Shown: piece by piece, positions 24,829 through 36,823 of the stretch | Layout of the letters: the number at the start of each line of letters is the position of its first letter | How positions within the stretch are numbered: position 1 is the first letter of the stretch | Source: Escherichia coli | GTDB taxonomy: Bacteria > Pseudomonadota > Gammaproteobacteria > Enterobacterales > Enterobacteriaceae | Assembly: GCF_044324875.1 (NCBI RefSeq) | Contig: NZ_CP172185.1 | DNA: 64,000 bases | Direction: 5' to 3' (one strand) | Translations under genes and position numbers: made by a program | Notes under the pieces: model-generated | The model's database searches: none | The model's input: the letters and a program-made list of their open reading frames with translations, nothing else | Told to the model about the DNA's origin: nothing

Positions 24829-25983
24829 TTATTTATTTTGTGGATTGATGTGTTTAATAAGAATGCGTCCATAAGTACGTTTGCCGTTAATAACTGTACA
24901 CCCACCCCTATCTTCAGAATGTTGAGAATAATTTAAAATCTCCAGTATCTCTTCGGGAGTTGATGCTCGTGTATTACCACTTGCTTGCCAAATAATTTCA
25001 AACTGTTCAGGACAATATTTATCCAAAAAGCTAATTGGCACGCCCATAACTCCTGCATAATCGCTAGGAATACCGTTAGTTCTGGGCACTTCAATAGCAT
25101 CATAATTGTCATATGCCTGATAAGCGTTAGGGTCATTGATAATTTGTTTGTTGTATTTTAAATTATCCGCCATAGACATTAGCTGTAAAGATTGATGCCG
25201 TCTGCCGTGTTCAATATTGGTAAACCAACAAGAGTTACCCAAACGAGTATAATCACCTATATATCCTAGACGCTCCGCTTTTTTCTTATCAGCTTCCCTC
25301 ACATCAGCACCTTGTGGTACAGCAAAAACCATATCATTACCATTCCCAGTAGCACCCAACCAAATTTTATTTCCTTTGATAAGTGGAAAAATCTCTTTAT
25401 AAGTAATAGCATTCATATTACCGATAACGGCAAACTGCTTTTTACCTTCCATAATCCATGCCATAAATTCGCGAAACAGCGAAAAAGGCGGATTGGTGAT
25501 AATTATGTCGCTTTCATCGCGTAGAGCTTTGATTTCATCACTACGAAAATCGCCATCACCCTGCAGGTATTGCCATTTAATATCTTTAAAATCAATTACA
25601 CCATCGTGATTACTGTCTTCGGTTAGCGTGTAAATTTTGCCATGTTTCTGGCTTTTATCACTGTCGTATTGTTCACTTTCGCTTTCAAATAATGATGGCT
25701 GATAAGCTGTGTTTAACTGTTTGGATTGATGAGCGTAGCTGGTACTGATGAGCTTCTTTAATCCAAGTCGTTCAAAGTTTTGTGCAAAATAAAGTGTGAA
25801 ATTGCTCCACTCGGGGTCATCACATGGTAAGAGAATGGTTTTGCCACGAAATACGTCTTTATTGAAATCAAGATAGGCATTCATCTCTTTTTCAATATCA
25901 TGGTATTGGGTGTAAAATTCGTCATTTTTGGCTTTTTTTGCAGCAGAAAGATTACTGTTTTTGGCAGAAATATTCTTTGACAT
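24829..25983 (-). CDS. N6-adenine DNA methyltransferase (NPPF motif)
   Basis: catalytic motif IITNPPF; GGAGG RBS 7 nt upstream. Confidence 0.6.
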   Translation of the reverse strand: MSKNISAKNSNLSAAKKAKNDEFYTQYHDIEKEMNAYLDFNKDVFRGKTILLPCDDPEWSNFTLYFAQNFERLGLKKLISTSYAHQSKQLNTAYQPSLFESESEQYDSDKSQKHGKIYTLTEDSNHDGVIDFKDIKWQYLQGDGDFRSDEIKALRDESDIIITNPPFSLFREFMAWIMEGKKQFAVIGNMNAITYKEIFPLIKGNKIWLGATGNGNDMVFAVPQGADVREADKKKAERLGYIGDYTRLGNSCWFTNIEHGRRHQSLQLMSMADNLKYNKQIINDPNAYQAYDNYDAIEVPRTNGIPSDYAGVMGVPISFLDKYCPEQFEIIWQASGNTRASTPEEILEILNYSQHSEDRGGCTVINGKRTYGRILIKHINPQNK

Positions 25984-26033
25984 TTCAAACCTCCAAAACA
26001 GTATTGAAGGTTTGAAAAAACGGGGTTACATTA

Positions 26034-26152
26034 TGCTTGTTGCTTGTTGCTTGTTGCTTGTTGCTTGTTGCTTGTTGCTTGTTGCTTGTTGCTTGTTGCT
26101 TGTTGCTTGTTGCTTGTTGCTTGTTGCTTGTTGCTTGTTGCTTGTTGCTTGT
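26034..26152. repeat. heptanucleotide microsatellite (TGCTTGT)x17
   Basis: 17 perfect tandem units, 119 bp, beginning 50 bp upstream of the methyltransferase ATG. Confidence 0.9.
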
Positions 26153-26211: not shown

Positions 26212-26538
26212 TCACGTATTCGTAACGATGGCATCAAGTGCAGCGATAATTTCATTTCTGGATGAAGAAATATTACATATAAAATCTTTGCTGTTTATTT
26301 TTTTTGCATCCAGGAACGTGAGCGCCGGGGTGAACACATAGAAATCCGATGTCTCTATTTTAACTAATGGCGTTATCCTTTTCTTTTTAAGCTCAATATC
26401 ATTTTTTGATACCAGAGGCACGACTATCCTTGTGGTTAAATCGTCAAAATAATCATTCTGGAGAATAAGGTAGAACGGCCAGAGTTTATTCGTTCTGACC
26501 GATGGATTGCGGTATACATCAAATTGCTTTGGCATCAC
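26212..26538 (-). CDS. CcdB-like toxin candidate
   Basis: 108 aa; QFDVYRN...FYLILQNDYF...PL pattern resembles CcdB; 4-nt overlap with upstream antitoxin-like ORF. Confidence 0.4.
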   Translation of the reverse strand: MMPKQFDVYRNPSVRTNKLWPFYLILQNDYFDDLTTRIVVPLVSKNDIELKKKRITPLVKIETSDFYVFTPALTFLDAKKINSKDFICNISSSRNEIIAALDAIVTNT

Positions 26539-26783
26539 AGACTCCCAAAGAAATCGTCATCCGTCAACATTCCTGCTTTTGCCATAAATTTATTCATAGT
26601 GTGCATATCCTGTTTTTCTTCTTCCCGCTCTACAGTTTTGGCCTCGATAGCCTGTGCCAGAAGGTTATCCAGTGTTGCCGACAGGTTCATGTCCATACTC
26701 CGGGCTTTATCAACCAGTGAGGCCGTCAGGTAAACGTTGGTGCTTCTTTTGTTGCTGTTACGAGTGGTGGCAACTGTATTCAT
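26535..26783 (-). CDS. CcdA-like antitoxin candidate
   Basis: 82 aa from ATG 26783 (AGGAG RBS); table ORF 26535-26879 trimmed. Confidence 0.4.
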   Translation of the reverse strand: MNTVATTRNSNKRSTNVYLTASLVDKARSMDMNLSATLDNLLAQAIEAKTVEREEEKQDMHTMNKFMAKAGMLTDDDFFGSL

Positions 26784-28802: not shown

Positions 28803-28944
28803 TTGTTGATGCTATCACGATATTCGCGATGCGGTAAATATATCAATATGTTGGTTTATTTGTGTAATACATTATTTCCCATACGCCATAAATCAGTCTG
28901 TTGACGATAGCTTTTTTCTTTTGTTATTCTGTACCCGCTTTAAC

Positions 28945-29187
28945 TGTCGCTTCGGCGACCACCAATGTTCCATGAGGCCTGTGAGGAACGCCTTCGGGTG
29001 GCCCACGTCGCTCCGGCGACCACCAATGCTCCATCTGACCTGTGAGGAGCGCCTTCGGGTGGTCAGTTTTACACCTCCGTAGCCTGAAAGGAGCTGTGCG
29101 TGCTGATGGGATATGTTCCCGGAAGTACGGGTAAATCTGCACACCTTTGCGAGCAGATGTCACCACGGTTTACGTGATGATGAAGGC
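28945..29187. repeat. 244-bp direct repeat copy A with internal 48-bp tandem sub-repeat
   Basis: about 95 percent identical to 31740-31983. Confidence 0.8.
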
Positions 29188-29921
29188 ATTCCGGATTTCG
29201 TCCGGTACTTTTACTTTTTCTCAGCAGACTTTCATAAAAATGCTTTATGGATCTGCTTCTTAAGATGTTTTCTGGCTTTCCGCATAAGCTTCTTATGACT
29301 GTGCGCACGGCATAAGGCCATTTGAAATTTGGCCGCTTGCGTGTGTACGTGGATTTTGAAGCCTTGCGGCGTCACTTGAGTGCGACCGTAGGGAACACCA
29401 AGTGACGCCACAACAATCTGCCCTGAAAGCAGCATCACGTAAGGCCAGCCAGAAAATCGTCGCTCGTGACCAGCGTTCTGATGACCGTTTCGTCTGTCTG
29501 ACAGCGTCTTTCAGTAACGTGTCCATGCCTTTCCGGCGCGTCCGTTTTCACGGACGGCCACGCCGGAATGTCTTTTTAAACTTCATAATACATGAGAGGT
29601 AAGTGTATTAACTTGTTGAAAAAAGGAATAAATATGAAAAATCGTTCTGAAGTCGGAAGGCGTCATCGTAAGATGACGGGGAGTAAAAAATCGCCCTGGT
29701 GCACAGGTAGCGAACTCCTGTAAAAACTCAACATGTGCAAGCTCTGCTACATCGACATCAAACGAGCCAGGAAGGCGAGCAACCGCGTTACAGAGCCGTC
29801 CGTGATGACGAAAAACTAACAATATCAACGATCTGGTCTGTTTATCGGAAGGGCATCTCATGCAGTTGAACTTTCAGAACGGATGGTTTTCTGCATCTTT
29901 TTTAACAGGGGGATTGACGTT

Positions 29922-30839
29922 ATGTCCCGTAAATCGTCACGTTCCAAAGTTGAAGTCTTTCGCAAGTCATTCATCTCACTTGCCCGTGATTGTGGTGGCA
30001 GCTACGCAACAACCGCTGACAGAATGCGAATTGCCAGATACTTTTTGAATTATTTGCAAGTAAACGGTATCAAACTTCGTCAGACGGGCAGTATTAAGAC
30101 GAGGCATATTTCTGGTTATCTTCTCAGCAGGAAAGAGCAGGGGATCTCTCACCGCACAATTCAGAATGAACGGGCAGTTATGCGCGCAATTCTAGAGAAA
30201 GATGGTCGCCTTAAAATAGCGGATCCGTCCAATCCTTTATTGAGCAATGAAGCTCTTGGACTCAGGGATACATGCCGTGATGGTAAAAAGATACCACTCT
30301 CACAGGATGAGTTTAATAAAGCCTTCAGTAAGGTTGAAAAAAATAATCCCGGTGTTGCTGCAGTAATGCAAATTTCTTATGTTCTTGGACTGAGGACAAA
30401 AGAAGCTGTTCAGTCTTGTAAATCAGTTAACTCGTGGCTACGTGAACTTGATTCAGGGCATGATTCTCTTCTCGTTGTTTTTGGGACGAAAGGTGGAAGG
30501 CCCAGAGATACAACGATCATTAATCGTGATGCAGTGAAACATGCGCTCATTTATGCAAAAAACATTATGGATAAACAGAATGGTAAACTTATCGATTGCC
30601 CCAATATTAAACAGGCTATAAACGTATATCGTTACCATGTAAGAAAAGCTGGTTTATCTGGAGTGAAGGCACCACATAGTATGCGTTATCATTTTTCGCA
30701 GGAAGCAAGGCAGTTTTATCGAAAAAGTGGATATGGAGATAAAGAAATTTACGCAAGGGTTTCCATGGACCTTGGTCATGGTGACGGAAGAGGGCGTTAT
30801 GTAAAACAGGTCTACTTTAAAGGCGATGATGAGAGCTGA
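29922..30839 (+). CDS. tyrosine-recombinase-like protein (integrase family)
   Basis: C-terminal HSMRYHFS...LGHGDGRGRY resembles Box II HxLRH...LGH...Y; AGGGGG RBS. Confidence 0.45.
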   Translation: MSRKSSRSKVEVFRKSFISLARDCGGSYATTADRMRIARYFLNYLQVNGIKLRQTGSIKTRHISGYLLSRKEQGISHRTIQNERAVMRAILEKDGRLKIADPSNPLLSNEALGLRDTCRDGKKIPLSQDEFNKAFSKVEKNNPGVAAVMQISYVLGLRTKEAVQSCKSVNSWLRELDSGHDSLLVVFGTKGGRPRDTTIINRDAVKHALIYAKNIMDKQNGKLIDCPNIKQAINVYRYHVRKAGLSGVKAPHSMRYHFSQEARQFYRKSGYGDKEIYARVSMDLGHGDGRGRYVKQVYFKGDDES

Positions 30840-30842
30840 TAT

Positions 30843-31583
30843 TTAAAATGAATCCGGAGGATATGTGTTTTTCGCGAACTTATTAATTTCTGTAATAAGA
30901 ATTTCTGATGCACGATTACACATGCTCTCATTAAAGTATCCTATATGGCATTCATGGATGCGGCAATTTAGTTTTCTGGATAGCCATCTGTTTGCCTCGT
31001 TACGGGATATATTTGTTTTTTGCTGATAGCTGTCAAAAAGTTTACGCACTTGTGCTCTGAGTATTCTCAAATTTTCTTTAGCTGGAGTACCTAATGGTCT
31101 CCCTGAATTTTTATGACATCCAACCCATGCATTGCATGGGCTGCAAATCCAGTAATATTTGTTTTCTGTAGTGGGTGTCGTGGAAAATGGCATAAGTGCA
31201 CCTTTTCTGAGTTGTGCCTTATTACCACAGTAAGTGCAGATTACAATTGGACGAACATCTGCAATATTCAGTGCTGCATAAGTAAGACGTTCATTTTTCA
31301 TCATGTTTCGTTTTCCACAGTCAGTGAGAATATGCTTTATTGTGTCTAATTCTTCTCGGAGTATTTTTGAACGGACGCCAGTTCGATAACGCTGTTGAAA
31401 GTAGAGCTCAATATGGCGTAGTTTTATACTATTTATTGATTTTATCTGTATATTGGATTCTTTAAGAAATGAAGCAAATCTTCTGGCTCTCCCCATATAT
31501 ACCAGTATGTCTTCTGGTGTCGGGGCGCATGCTTTAGCTATTTTGATTAGCTCATCTTTTAATTTTTTGTATTTCGATTTCAT
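30843..31583 (-). CDS. integrase-N-terminal-like domain plus Cys-rich zinc-ribbon protein
   Basis: CTYCGN...CSPCNAWVGCH and CRIHECH clusters; convergent with 29922-30839. Confidence 0.4.
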   Translation of the reverse strand: MKSKYKKLKDELIKIAKACAPTPEDILVYMGRARRFASFLKESNIQIKSINSIKLRHIELYFQQRYRTGVRSKILREELDTIKHILTDCGKRNMMKNERLTYAALNIADVRPIVICTYCGNKAQLRKGALMPFSTTPTTENKYYWICSPCNAWVGCHKNSGRPLGTPAKENLRILRAQVRKLFDSYQQKTNISRNEANRWLSRKLNCRIHECHIGYFNESMCNRASEILITEINKFAKNTYPPDSF

Positions 31584-31739
31584 CCTGATATCTCTCTTTA
31601 AGGTTCATTAAGAGTGTTACTGAGTAAAAAAATATCAAATTAAGTATTTATTGTCATTCAGTTGTAGCTTCTCAGCCGCTCCACGACAATAACAACTTGA
31701 AGTTTTATGCAGTTTGTGCTTACAATTTAAACGCTAACT

Positions 31740-31983
31740 TGTCGCTTCGGCGACCACCAATGTTCCATGTGGCCTGTGAGGAACGCCTTCGGGTGGCCCA
31801 CGTCGCTCCGGCGACCACCAATGCTTCATCTGACCTGTGAGGAGCGCCTTCGGGTGGTCAGTTTTACACCTCCTGAGCCTGAAAGGAGCTGTGCGTGCTG
31901 AAGGGATATGTTCCCGGAAGTACGGGCAAATCTGCGCACCTTTGAGAGCAGATGTCACTGCGGTTTTCCGTGATGATGAAGGC
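31740..31983. repeat. 244-bp direct repeat copy B
   Basis: pairs with 28945-29187. Confidence 0.8.
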
Positions 31984-32112
31984 TTTTTTATCACTGTATG
32001 ACCTGAGTTATCTCTGGTCTTTAAGCGCATCGTGTTATCGCGTTGATGTGTTCACCTGACGGATTTTCCAGTCCGTCAGGGCGGAACGTCCGTCTTTTAT
32101 CCGGAGGTTCCG

Positions 32113-32514
32113 ATGTTTATTCCACTTCTGTTTCGCGCAGAGATGCGCCTGACACCTTTCTTTCAGCGACTCAGACAACGTCTGTGTTATCCGGTGAGTC
32201 GTGTTCATACACAACATCCCTGGTCTTCTCCACAGTTGCGGCACCTTTACTGCACGCCGTGGTTTGTTAACGCCACCGGCAATCTGGCAGTCCGTGCCTG
32301 CATTGTTTCCATTGACGGTTCTTTGCGACACTGCTTTGAGTTCCGTGAAGGCTCTCACAGCCGTGAATACCGTTTCTGGTTTGAGGCGCTTCCTTTGTCG
32401 GTACTGCGTTTTAACGCTTTTACCGGTCGAATATCCGATCGCCGTACACTCTCTGCTGCCTCCCGTATGGCCGCGCAGCTTACTTCCTTTCGCTATCGCT
32501 TCGGTTTGCGCTGA
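32113..32514 (+). CDS. hypothetical basic protein
   Basis: GGAGG RBS 7 nt upstream; Arg-rich. Confidence 0.3.
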   Translation: MFIPLLFRAEMRLTPFFQRLRQRLCYPVSRVHTQHPWSSPQLRHLYCTPWFVNATGNLAVRACIVSIDGSLRHCFEFREGSHSREYRFWFEALPLSVLRFNAFTGRISDRRTLSAASRMAAQLTSFRYRFGLR

Positions 32515-32666
32515 AGCTGTTTGAGGTCGTTATGACCGTCATTTTCTCTACGAGCAGCGTTGTCTGATCGCGCCATTCAGAACGCGATGACAAAGCTGAT
32601 TTTTCCTTAACCCGTCCGGGAGCGCTTCCGTTCGGGGAACGGTCTCTCTGTTTCTGGAGATTGTTT

Positions 32667-33053
32667 ATGGGACTCGATATTTTTTTCCTTGGGCGTGATC
32701 GTGTTTGTGTTACCGACGCAGTGGTATCGGTACCGGAAACGCGGGAAGTGGGGTACTTTCGCAAGGTTAACCCACTGATTGCCTGGTTTGAGAAGCATTG
32801 TGGACCGCTTGAAAATGCCGTGGAGCGTCCGGTTTCCAGAACGAAACTGGAGGCACTACTGAGCGATCTTGAATGCCTTACGCCGGAGAACTGCCGGGAA
32901 TTCTTCCCCACAACAGAAGGATTCTTTTTTGGCTCTCAGGAGTATGACCAGTATTACTGGAAGGATGTTGAGGACGTGAAGTCGTGGGTCAGACGCACGC
33001 TTGATTCGTTTGATTTTGAACGAAAAATACTGTTGCTCTGGGCATGGTGGTAA
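32667..33053 (+). CDS. hypothetical protein
   Basis: GGAGA RBS; 128 aa. Confidence 0.35.
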   Translation: MGLDIFFLGRDRVCVTDAVVSVPETREVGYFRKVNPLIAWFEKHCGPLENAVERPVSRTKLEALLSDLECLTPENCREFFPTTEGFFFGSQEYDQYYWKDVEDVKSWVRRTLDSFDFERKILLLWAWW

Positions 33054-33139: not shown

Positions 33140-33331
33140 ATGCAAATAAGTGCAGAAACTCGCGCTGTTTTACGTCACTACAGACAGATCATTAACGCCA
33201 GACGGCGTGAAGATGGCATGAAAGCTCTCAGCACGCCGCAAATCGTTGATGAGATCTGTGAGTTTATGCTCAGCCAGCCAGCAGTGTATCTGGGGGGGCA
33301 GTTCATCATGCAGAAGGCCAGAACAAGATAG
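33140..33331 (+). CDS. small hypothetical protein
   Basis: GGAGA RBS; 63 aa. Confidence 0.3.
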   Translation: MQISAETRAVLRHYRQIINARRREDGMKALSTPQIVDEICEFMLSQPAVYLGGQFIMQKARTR

Positions 33332-33884
33332 CTGTCTTTGTTCATGGCTTTTCAACAGACCGTTATGCTTTCGCCACCACATGGTAAGGCGGGTCTGATT
33401 TTACTGTTAACCGTACGGTTCACTCTCATACCGTACGGTGGGAGTGAACCCTTTTCATTAAGGACACTCTCATGAAAACGAAAACTTCTGCACCTGCTGT
33501 ATATGTTGGTACCTGGGCTAAATACAACAATGGCAGCATAGAAGGATGCTGGTTTAATGATTTAACCGTTTTTGAAACTGAAAGCGATTTTTTATCTGCG
33601 GCCCGTAAGTTTCATCAGGATGAAAAAGATCCTGAATTTATGTACCAGGATTATGAAAACTTTCCTTCGGGAATGGCTTCAGTGCAAAATGGCATCTGAA
33701 TCGATCGCAGTTTGGCATTCGAATCGATCATGATTTGGCATCCATCTCCGATCACAGTTTGGCATCACAATCGATCACGATTTGGCATGCTTCCGATCAT
33801 TGATTGGCATCCTGCCAGTCACTCCGGGAATTAACTCTTTTCACCACAGTCTCCATTGCCGTGTTTAAACCAGTGGAGACGTCA

Positions 33885-35450
33885 ATGTCCAGAAAGAGAA
33901 AATCCAGGAGCACTATGGAAACCTGTTTTAAGATCCTTCAGCTCAAGTTCGACAAGAAGCTGACTAACCGTTGTATCGGACTGACGTTACACATCAGCGC
34001 CTCAACCGTTTTTGAGGTTCTTGCCCGCTTCAAAGCCTCTTCTCTGTCATGGCCATTACCTGCTGATATATCCCATGACACGCTGGAGAAACTCATTTTT
34101 CCGCCCAAAGACACCTTTGCATCAGAGCTTGTAATGCCTGACATGTTGTACTTCGATACGGAAATGAGAAAACCAGGTGTGACGCGGCAACTGTTGTGGA
34201 TGGAATACAAGGCACAGGCGGGTAACAAAGCGATGGGATACTCGCACTTCTGCCGTTGCTACCGGGAGTGGAAAAAAACGCGACGTCTCTCCATGCGCCA
34301 GGAGCATCGTGCCGGCGAAAAGCTTTTTATCGACTTCTGTGGTCCTACGGTTCCTGTTATTAATCCGGACACCGGTGAGATACGCCGCGTGGCAATCTTC
34401 GTGGCCGTAATGGGGGCGTCCAACTATACCTACGTTGAAGCGTGCGAAGGTCAGGACATGATGTCATGGTTAAATGCCCACAGCCGTTGCCTGACCTTCC
34501 TGGGCGGCGTACCGAAGCTGCTCATCCCCGATAACCTCAGAAGCGCAGTGAAAAAGGCCGATCGATATGAGCCTGTCATCAACGACAGTTATCAGGCACT
34601 GGCTGAGCACTATGGCACGGTTATCATCCCGGCCCGACCACGCAAACCTAAAGATAAACCAAAAGCAGAAAACGGCGTCCTCATCGTTGAACGATGGCTT
34701 CTTGCCCGCATCCGTAATGAAACCTTCCACACGCTCAGGGCGCTGAATGCGCGCCTTAGGGAGTTACTGACAGACATGAATAACCGGCCAATGAAGGGGT
34801 ACGGCAATCAAACCCGTGCAGAACGCTTCCGCATACTGGATGCGCCAGCACTCTCTCCGCTGCCTCTGGCACCTTATGAATACACGGAATACAAAGCTGT
34901 GAAGGTTGGCCCTGACTACCACGTTGAATATGCCCGTCACTGGTACTCCGTTCCACACGAACTGGTCGGTCAGCGTCTGTCACTGAAGGCGGGGCAGTCG
35001 GTGGTACAGCTCTGGCACAAGGGGCAGTGTGTGGCGCAACATCCGCGCAGCACACATGAATATAAACACACAACCAATCCGCTTCACATGCCAGAGCGCC
35101 ACCGGCAGCACGGGACATGGACACCGGAACGCCTGATCGAGCAGGGAAAACGTACGGGCCCGTCCACAGGCCGGGTGGTTGAATCCATGCTGAAGGCAAA
35201 ACCCCATCCGGAACTGGCTTATCGTGCAGTTCTGGGGCTGCTGGCACTTCAGAAAAAATACGGCCCGGAACGGCTGGAAAAGGCCTGTTACGTTGCCCTG
35301 CACTATAACGCCCCTGACAGACGCTTTATCGACAATCTGCTGCGTCACCATCGGGAGAACCTGGAGCTTCCATTATCCCGCCAGGGCGAACAACATCCGG
35401 CATATGCTTCAGAGCATGAAAACCTGCGTGGTCCGGGCTACTACCACTGA
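33885..35450 (+). CDS. istA: IS21-family transposase IstA
   Basis: 521 aa, N-terminal HTH and DDE-like core; GGAGA RBS. Confidence 0.7.
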   Translation: MSRKRKSRSTMETCFKILQLKFDKKLTNRCIGLTLHISASTVFEVLARFKASSLSWPLPADISHDTLEKLIFPPKDTFASELVMPDMLYFDTEMRKPGVTRQLLWMEYKAQAGNKAMGYSHFCRCYREWKKTRRLSMRQEHRAGEKLFIDFCGPTVPVINPDTGEIRRVAIFVAVMGASNYTYVEACEGQDMMSWLNAHSRCLTFLGGVPKLLIPDNLRSAVKKADRYEPVINDSYQALAEHYGTVIIPARPRKPKDKPKAENGVLIVERWLLARIRNETFHTLRALNARLRELLTDMNNRPMKGYGNQTRAERFRILDAPALSPLPLAPYEYTEYKAVKVGPDYHVEYARHWYSVPHELVGQRLSLKAGQSVVQLWHKGQCVAQHPRSTHEYKHTTNPLHMPERHRQHGTWTPERLIEQGKRTGPSTGRVVESMLKAKPHPELAYRAVLGLLALQKKYGPERLEKACYVALHYNAPDRRFIDNLLRHHRENLELPLSRQGEQHPAYASEHENLRGPGYYH

Positions 35451-36222: not shown

Positions 36223-36823
36223 AAAGCGGTAGAAAAAGTTAAGTTCCCGGTTGATCGAATGGATGCGAATCGCTGATCGGACTTCGATGCCAATCCGTGA
36301 TCGAATAGAGCGGAATACGCAGCTTCAGAATATGGTTTCAACTGGGCTTATGTTGAAGGTTATCGTCTTGCCCGTGAAGAAGGCTGTGAAGATGCATGGT
36401 ATGCATGGGTTTCTAATACCGGTGATACCTGTTTCGAACAGTTCAGGGAGGCGTGGCTTGGTGGTCCTTATGACAGTGAACTCGAGTTCGCCGCGCAGTA
36501 CGTGGATGAATGCGGTTTTCTGTCAGAGGTACCTGATACTGTTGCACGCTATTTTGATTATGAGGCTTTTGCGCGCGATTTGTTCATGGAACTGGATTTT
36601 GTCGACGGACACGTTTTCCATCGGTAACTCACAGCCATGAGGGCGCATATAAGCCGTGTACTGGCGGATGTGATTTCAGCATACATTCTGCTGGTTTTTT
36701 TACCGTTGTTGACAATTTTAATCATCGCGGATGAACAACCTGAACTCTGTTGTTCACCGCCCGGAGGCATCGTTCCTTCGGACGGTGTGCTCTTTCATCA
36801 GAAAGAATCAGACAGGGGGTTTT

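Follow-up and report, generated by a model that had tools for sequence, protein, structure and literature searches.

What are the two near-identical direct repeats which bracket a tyrosine-recombinase-like gene and a convergent gene for a Cys-rich zinc protein in Escherichia coli contig NZ_CP172185.1 (RefSeq assembly GCF_044324875.1)? The stretch analyzed here, referred to as the window, comprises 64,000 nt of this contig, and an earlier note on it had offered two answers: att sites of a small integrative or invertible unit, or duplicated noncoding RNA genes. We consider it likely that each repeat is one of at least three copies of the STAXI RNA element in an integrative and conjugative element (ICE) of the SPI-7 type, that each constitutes a promoter-defined RNA unit and gene leader, and that the module headed by copy 1 resembles the mobilization region of the island SGI1 (mobSGI1) and contains no att sites. 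The identity of the element, its promoter, the strand on which it folds, its co-orientation with neighboring genes, its multi-copy state and the family of the enclosed protein were established in silico.

Identity and fold of the repeats

The two repeats were compared by pairwise alignment and BLAST and share 94.7% identity, with 12 mismatches and 1 gap over 247 nt (coordinates of all features are collected in Table 1). The earlier description of 244-bp copies at about 95 percent identity was therefore accurate, the limits found here being slightly longer, while a repeat search of the window returned a narrower call (28945-29171 and 31740-31966, 96%, spacing 2795). Both copies have sharp borders, and their flanks bear no relation to each other. 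Inside each repeat Tandem Repeats Finder (TRF) identified a period of 61 nt present in 1.9 copies, at 28946-29062 and 31741-31857, and the 48-bp tandem sub-repeat reported earlier (GGCGACCACCAATG...GCCTTCGGGTGG) proved to be the conserved core of this 61-nt unit.

When the entire 64-kb window was searched with Rfam at gathering thresholds, three matches were returned, two to STAXI (RF01728) and one to EFASI (RF02957). Copy 1 scored 85.3 bits and copy 2 scored 83.3 bits against a gathering score of 40.5, with both matches covering model positions 1-153 of 153. EFASI scored 71.7 bits against a gathering score of 51.2 and lies approximately 450 nt downstream of STAXI and 160 nt upstream of the integrase-family gene. 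The covariance-model check proposed in the earlier note thus assigns both repeats to STAXI at more than 80 bits, and these gathering-level matches, together with the sigma-70-like promoters of each copy and the covariation on the sense strand, uphold its suggestion of duplicated noncoding RNA genes. Weinberg et al. reported STAXI in 2010 as a pseudoknot that recurs in tandem and is found near Ssb, topoisomerase, antirestriction and integrase genes, the question of RNA versus single-stranded DNA (ssDNA) being left open (PMC2864571). EFASI stands for "Enterobacteriaceae, Frequently Around STAXI and Integrases", and is located several hundred bp after STAXI and before integrase genes (Rfam text in PMC12370729). 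As the STAXI-EFASI-integrase arrangement is already present in the literature and in Rfam, the two STAXI copies and EFASI are a known element in its described arrangement, and their detection here is a rediscovery. As an object the locus is ordinary, an instance of two curated RNA families. Both families remain without an assigned function in the literature, and the promoter, the co-orientation and the matching of sequence types reported below provide handles on such a function.

A pattern scan of one genome per species gave 120 loci, and all true matches were from Enterobacterales; eight matches in other phyla were rejected as chance, the rest of the STAXI unit being missing there. With nhmmer, 216 units in 139 elements were collected, from which promoter statistics were calculated on 131 distinct elements (Enterobacterales) and covariation on 89 distinct units. 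In these 89 units, 98% of the cells of the P1 helix and pseudoknot helix were paired and 8 pairs were changed on both sides, whereas slid controls, in which the partner was moved by 1-3 columns, gave 33-49% pairing. Of the pairs changed on both sides, 3 fall in the pseudoknot helix, which was itself 99.6% paired, and 5 in the P1 helix. Each window copy contains two full pseudoknot units and a degenerate third, and the STAXI units carry invariant unpaired CCAAUG and CUGNGAG. Read on the gene-sense strand, the wobble pairs comprised 55 G.U cells and one invariant G.U as compared with 11 A.C cells, and because G.U is far commoner than A.C there, the gene-sense strand is taken as the folding strand. 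Minimum-free-energy folding of the whole 288-nt unit gave a structure with only a slight advantage over shuffled sequences (z about -1.8 to -1.9) which did not reproduce the consensus, and for this reason the covariation evidence was used instead. A role as CsrA sponge was considered and rejected, the GGA motifs being paired within the pseudoknot. No STAXI was found among 50,697 phage records, so that a reported link to c4/P1 is not relevant here.

Promoters and co-oriented genes

A stringent sigma-70 match with its -10 ending 29-34 nt before the first unit was observed in 83 of the 131 distinct elements, approximately 21-fold over other positions, and the surroundings of this fixed-distance promoter were otherwise unrelated between elements. 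The same was observed within the window, where the promoter region of copy 2 is not homologous to that of copy 1 and lies at an equal distance from the repeat. Terminator-like sites were present downstream of 53 of 123 elements as compared with 24 and 11 in two controls. STAXI transcripts have been described previously: RNA-seq of Pectobacterium recorded 228-nt transcripts adjoining topB (PMC4710047), and STAXI was detected by reverse transcription quantitative PCR in E. coli vesicles (PMC12370729). The fixed-distance promoter, the sense-strand fold and the transcripts published for other hosts together favor the view that STAXI acts as an RNA.

The STAXI discoverers raised the possibility of a function as DNA (PMC2864571). 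In one such reading STAXI would serve as folded ssDNA on the strand transferred in conjugation or displaced in rolling-circle replication, for instance as a priming or single-strand initiation signal or as a single-strand promoter, similar to the Frpo/ssi elements of plasmid leading regions or to sso of rolling-circle plasmids. The presence of ssb, topB, primase, ArdA and ArdC nearby in a conjugative element would suit such a function, as would the tolerance of DNA hairpins for G.T pairs and the fact that one STAXI carrier, p3, is a 3.1-kb plasmid with a HUH-type Rep. The promoter hexamers, however, are no part of the structure and keep a fixed distance from it within flanks that are neither paired nor conserved, as in an ordinary duplex promoter for a sense RNA, and the UUCG and GNRA loops are of a kind which stabilizes RNA and not DNA. 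Transcripts were detected experimentally in other hosts, and the element on p3 is opposite to the rep strand, so that the displaced strand, as judged from the usual polarity of such plasmids, would carry the complement. Frpo-type elements fold on the template strand, in contrast to STAXI, which folds on the gene-sense strand. We therefore regard an ssDNA function as quite improbable.

Every conserved gene family around STAXI shares its orientation. This was the case for the PF12835 gene (76/76, about 685 nt downstream), the STY4534 family (29/29, about 160 nt downstream), the homolog of 32113-32514 (27/27, about 200 nt downstream) and, also downstream of STAXI, ssb (18/18) and an ArdC-like gene (30/30), as well as for topB (24/24), which ends just upstream of STAXI. 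The neighbors with DNA-handling functions are the PF12835 gene and ardA in the window, and topB, STY4534 and ssb at a third copy located elsewhere in the ICE.

In the reading of STAXI as RNA unit and leader, each copy would be a transcription unit of approximately 250 nt under its own sigma-70 promoter, and the RNA, folding on the gene-sense strand, would consist of a 5' hairpin, tandem H-type pseudoknots and then a weak terminator-like signal, with read-through transcripts running on into the co-oriented downstream genes. Because read-through would reach these genes, STAXI would be both a discrete small RNA and a promoter-proximal leader of ICE operons for DNA processing and anti-restriction, in which position it probably sets the amount of onward transcription. 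Copy 1 would head a structured leader of approximately 0.95 kb composed of STAXI, a spacer with a GC-rich inverted repeat, and EFASI, before the PF12835 gene, while copy 2 would head an operon ending in ardA. The ardA gene of the window is split, with residues 1-70 encoded at 33472-33681 and residues 69-170 at 36322-36627; between the two parts lies a 2.6-kb IS21-family element (istA 33804-35450, NF033546 E 1e-84), and ardA is intact in related ICEs.

Copies within the ICE and on small plasmids

Matches of the window to E. coli chromosomes reached 99.9% identity. The region is part, in strain CM2, of an SPI-7-type ICE at tRNA-Phe, which carries parA, dnaB-PI, parB, STY4528, topB, STY4534, ssb, a pil cluster, a UvrD-like helicase, TraI and an integrase, together with a type IV secretion system of TIGR037xx type, and nearly all of the ICE core genes run in the direction of STAXI. 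The third STAXI copy is found between topB and the STY4534 gene, approximately 34 kb from copy 1, with the type IV secretion genes in between. At 98.4% identity it is closer to copy 2 than copy 1 is. The layout of STAXI, EFASI, PF12835 gene, second gene and STAXI was also found in E. coli 64.1, Salmonella SGI-4, Edwardsiella ictaluri and Erwinia psidii, and in related ICEs with this layout the number of units differs between the two flanking STAXI copies.

These observations bear directly on the proposal that the repeats are att or recombination sites for the enclosed tyrosine-recombinase-like protein and delimit an excisable or invertible cassette of 2.55 kb. Direct repeats do flank a gene of the tyrosine-recombinase superfamily in which all catalytic residues are kept, and the flanked layout recurs in four genera with both copies retaining high-identity segments. 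Recombination of the flanking repeats with the third copy would, however, delete the transfer apparatus, and repeats are not confined to the unit ends as in an att-bounded cassette, given the third ICE copy and further copies on small plasmids which lack the PF12835 gene. The database comparison for the site without the intervening genes, which the earlier note had suggested, was run with a reconstructed empty site (left flank, one repeat and right flank), and no contiguous match with at least 80% coverage was obtained (0/5,426 complete E. coli genomes). The limits of the repeat coincide with those of the promoter-defined transcription unit and not with a crossover core, while covariation maintains a single-strand pseudoknot, not a duplex core for protein binding. 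In addition, the characterized PF12835 member acts at an origin of transfer (oriT), not at att sites. Taken together, the promoter, fold and co-orientation, the third copy, the differing unit numbers and the lack of empty sites lead us to reject the att-site proposal, to which we would give very little chance, and support the reading of the repeats as RNA genes.

The sequence type of STAXI was compared between ICEs and plasmids (loci L128 1950-2260 and 4745-5010; L133 2971-3660; L126 13604-13916). Within one ICE all STAXI copies share one sequence type. The ICE of strain 64.1 has flanking DNA approximately 99% identical to that of the window ICE and a PF12835 gene at 99.3%, and its three STAXI copies all belong to a different type, which gave no BLAST match to the window type. 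The block swapped between ICE types begins at the predicted start of transcription and reaches the 3' end of the STAXI unit. Three small plasmids of poultry E. coli, p3 (3.1 kb, HUH-Rep, strain 64.1), pLH50-c-F (5.3 kb) and pGF43-E (4.4 kb), carry the promoter and STAXI, with or without spacer and EFASI, and without a PF12835 gene. On p3, STAXI is 99.6% identical to ICE copy 2 and the spacer and EFASI match at 94%, while pGF43-E carries a window-type STAXI and 190 nt of spacer at 97%, strain GF43 being the carrier of a window-type ICE. Wherever it could be checked, the plasmid STAXI was accordingly of the type of the ICE in the same strain. This matching within ICEs and plasmids could stem from gene conversion or from selection for matched copies, and either fits.

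The coordinated types would also suit a model in which the main role of STAXI is exerted in trans, as a small RNA or protein sponge present in several copies and in element-specific types, and in which it lies upstream of genes only incidentally. One type occupies all three sites of an ICE, a 99%-identical ICE has another type at all three, and small plasmids that have no downstream ICE gene at all nevertheless share the type of the ICE in their host. The discrete unit of approximately 250 nt with sharp borders and the 228-nt transcripts seen in RNA-seq are in keeping with a small RNA, and the tandem pseudoknots, in which CCAAUG and CUGNGAG stay unpaired and invariant, hint at binding sites in repeated form. 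Set against this are the invariant orientation to downstream genes and the start codon often located about 160-200 nt after the last unit, too near for another promoter. No target or partner was identified, and homogenization could be plain gene conversion. On balance we think it unlikely that this is the main role of STAXI, although it is compatible with the leader model and does not exclude it.

Searches for transfer signals on the plasmids returned little. A pC194-type nick motif was not found in the rolling-circle plasmid p3. MOB-suite classified p3 as "mobilizable" and a sister plasmid with the same module as "non-mobilizable", and because the two were typed differently this typing gives no support for placing an oriT within the module. 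The STAXI fragments of large E. coli plasmids sit in remnants rich in insertion sequences and were uninformative on orientation relative to known oriT.

Table 1. Coordinates of the STAXI copies, the genes they enclose and adjoining features within the window.
Feature	Position	Strand	Remarks
Promoter of STAXI copy 1	28901-28930	+	sigma-70-like TTGACG-18-TATTCT, TG-extended; predicted start ~28937, just 5' of the repeat
Repeat copy 1, STAXI RNA unit	28941-29190	+	Rfam match 28945-29117
Copy 1, 5' hairpin	28946-28959	+	part of STAXI unit
Copy 1, pseudoknot unit 1	28960-29005	+	part of STAXI unit
Copy 1, hairpin between units	29007-29020	+	part of STAXI unit
Copy 1, pseudoknot unit 2	29021-29066	+	part of STAXI unit
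Copy 1, degenerate third unit	29067-29117	+	part of STAXI unit
Copy 1, 3' hairpins	29118-29190	+	part of STAXI unit
Terminator-like hairpin CCGGATTTCGTCCGG (29191-29205), then T-rich tail	29191-29215	+	directly 3' of copy 1
GC-rich inverted repeat CCGGCGCGTCCG-TTTTCA-CGGACGGCCACGCCGG, then AT-rich DNA	29533-29566		in spacer; read from sequence
EFASI RNA motif	29642-29764	+	RF02957; 158-280 nt upstream of PF12835 gene start
PF12835 (Integrase_1) + PF12834 gene, MpsA-like	29922-30839	+	RefSeq start 29922; 29883 possible start
PF12834-type N-domain + DUF3268 zinc-finger gene	30843-31583	-	convergent to PF12835 gene
Promoter of STAXI copy 2	31697-31726	+	sigma-70-like TTGAAG-18-TACAAT; predicted start near 31733
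Repeat copy 2, STAXI RNA unit	31736-31986	+	Rfam match 31740-31911; 3' end GGC-TTTTTT
Genes after copy 2	32113-32514, 32661-33053, 33140-33331, 33472-33681 (ardA 5' part)	+	co-oriented with STAXI

Upstream of the STAXI region the window contains genes for an EcoRI-family adenine methyltransferase (24871-26025, - strand) and then an HNH endonuclease. The heptanucleotide TGCTTGT is repeated 17 times with 100% matches at 26034-26152, starting 9 nt upstream of the methyltransferase start codon; the tract looks like a slippage-prone sequence which could phase-vary this restriction-modification pair. A ccdB/ccdA toxin-antitoxin pair (26212-26783, - strand) lies between the restriction-modification genes and the STAXI region.

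The copy-1 module and its counterparts

A PF12835-like gene follows EFASI in 39 of 47 matches at a median distance of 106 nt. No conserved promoter was found upstream of EFASI, for which reason EFASI is probably part of the transcript begun at STAXI, and a promoter scan of the + strand from 29200 to 29900 revealed no further promoter-like site. The CGTCCG-N6-CGGACG core of the spacer inverted repeat recurs upstream of EFASI in several genera. This repeat may be an RNA hairpin or, by analogy with the oriT of SGI1, an oriT-like site. A Shine-Dalgarno-like AAGGAGG(A)AAA is located directly 5' of EFASI in most lineages (window 29623-29641; L005 12611-12621), with no conserved start codon or open reading frame after it, and a small open reading frame inside EFASI was rejected as it is not conserved.

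Pfam searches confirmed the enclosed genes as they had been described earlier, one integrase-like and the other a convergent gene for a Cys-rich zinc protein. The product of 29922-30839 matched PF12835 (E 2e-51) and Phage_int_SAM_2 (PF12834), and residues R158, K190, H252, R255, H286 and Y298 were kept across 49 homologs of 39-100% identity. The N-terminal domains of the PF12835 protein and zinc-finger protein are 25% identical (E 6e-10). The former is related to the tyrosine recombinases; the characterized member of its family, SGI1 MpsA, behaves as a relaxase and not as an integrase. PF12835 has been used by the Burrus laboratory as the signature of MpsA-type atypical, tyrosine-recombinase-like relaxases (PMC10484663), and a 2026 preprint names the MpsA class MOB_M, common and overlooked in chromosomes (bioRxiv 10.64898/2026.01.13.699239). 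Remote homologs of the PF12835 protein (23-26% identity over ~90% of the length) were seen on 4-15-kb plasmids of Acinetobacter, Francisella, Psychrobacter and Clostridium perfringens; these plasmids were typed as non-mobilizable by MOB-suite and the proteins may be overlooked MOB_M-type relaxases.

In the mobilization region of SGI1 the sigma-70 promoter P5 is followed, in one direction, by a terminator-like repeat, an oriT containing inverted repeats rich in GC, a small RNA, mpsA and mpsB (PMC6414798, PMC9299015). P5 is strong, and the terminator-like repeat 66 nt after the start limits full-length RNA; the essential small RNA is the 3' end of a primary transcript of 650-700 nt, and MpsB resembles an integrase core-binding domain (PMC6414798, PMC9299015). 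For comparison, this region was taken from PLSDB record OX345320.1 by means of primer sequences from the paper supplement, which gave no match in E. coli genomes. MpsA matched PF12835 at E 1.1e-10 and was 26% identical to the PF12835 protein of the window (BLASTP, E 8e-6). A profile search of 5.8 billion proteins returned close family members only and no named MpsA, and the partner gene of SGI-4 showed no similarity to the window zinc-finger protein. The core of the SGI1 sgm-sRNA (L131 6140-6170) contains a hairpin followed by GACCAGCCAATGG, like the hairpin and CCAGCCAATG at the start of the STAXI unit, with no similarity to STAXI at the profile or covariance level. Most likely, the copy-1 module serves in DNA transfer or DNA processing in the manner of mobSGI1 and does not represent an integrase accompanied by att sites, and we infer by analogy an attenuator role for STAXI and a mobilization role for the module.

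Several points weigh against this interpretation. A recognizable terminator was found in only 43% of STAXI elements, which renders the 3' end of STAXI and its attenuator role uncertain, and the transcripts in the window are predicted ones. The tolerance of DNA for G.T pairs leaves a function of the sense strand as DNA compatible with the pairing data. STAXI also occurs without a following PF12835 gene, as in the copy beside topB, the copy heading the ardA operon and the one on a 4.4-kb plasmid that lacks EFASI, so that its role cannot be specific to the PF12835 module. With respect to SGI1, neither Rfam nor nhmmer detected similarity to STAXI or EFASI in the RNA region, and MpsB had no significant similarity to the window zinc-finger protein. 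As the RNA region and MpsB are unmatched, the parallel is carried by one homologous protein and the layout.

A more specific version, which we advance tentatively and believe to be rather less probable than not, is that STAXI, spacer and EFASI form the noncoding half of a MOB_M relaxase module native to SPI-7-type ICEs, with the inverted repeat at 29533-29566 as oriT. EFASI would then be the counterpart of the SGI1 sgm-sRNA, an RNA required for relaxosome function, and STAXI would be an attenuator which doses the primary transcript and has been reused before other early ICE operons. Plasmids with the noncoding part alone would be hitchers mobilized or regulated in trans by the ICE. Such a module, if real, would give two Rfam motifs that are still orphans a function. 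A functional link of STAXI and EFASI to MpsA-type transfer is a new and testable hypothesis. If the parallel with SGI1 holds, RNA-assisted initiation of conjugative transfer would be widespread in Enterobacterales elements and not a peculiarity of SGI1, and the genes of these islands annotated as "integrase domain-containing" would encode transfer proteins.

When compared with known systems, the repeats agree with STAXI RF01728 as described (PMC2864571) in their full-length match, their tandem pseudoknots with UUCG loops, their occurrence in Enterobacterales and their integrase-like, ssb, topoisomerase and antirestriction neighbors. The fixed-distance promoter, the strict co-orientation, the residence in SPI-7-type ICEs and small plasmids and the coordinated types within an element go beyond that description. 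Like the Frpo/ssi elements of plasmid leading regions, STAXI is a repeated, structured noncoding element before ssb and antirestriction genes of a conjugative element; those elements, however, fold on the transferred template strand with the promoter within the hairpin, whereas STAXI folds on the sense strand and has a duplex promoter outside the structure. A promoter, tandem pseudoknot repeats, a terminator and a co-oriented gene are also features of type III toxin-antitoxin (ToxI-like) RNAs, from which STAXI differs in its units of 46-61 nt with another fold. A type III antitoxin was rejected, the downstream genes being from several unrelated families and none of them an endoribonuclease toxin.

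MobSGI1 is among the closest known counterparts of the copy-1 module. The partner protein of the window is convergent, zinc-finger-bearing and dissimilar to MpsB, and its host is a self-transmissible ICE with its own TraI while SGI1 is a mobilizable island. The window shares with mobSGI1 a PF12835 protein, homologous and alike in its catalytic residues, a strong sigma-70 promoter located several hundred nt before the gene for this protein, a promoter-proximal terminator-like hairpin and a GC-rich inverted repeat in the middle of the leader. A structured RNA, EFASI, lies directly upstream of the gene in the position of the SGI1 small RNA, with all of these parts in a single direction, and both systems have a second protein with a domain like the integrase core-binding domain and an association with MOBH-type conjugation systems.

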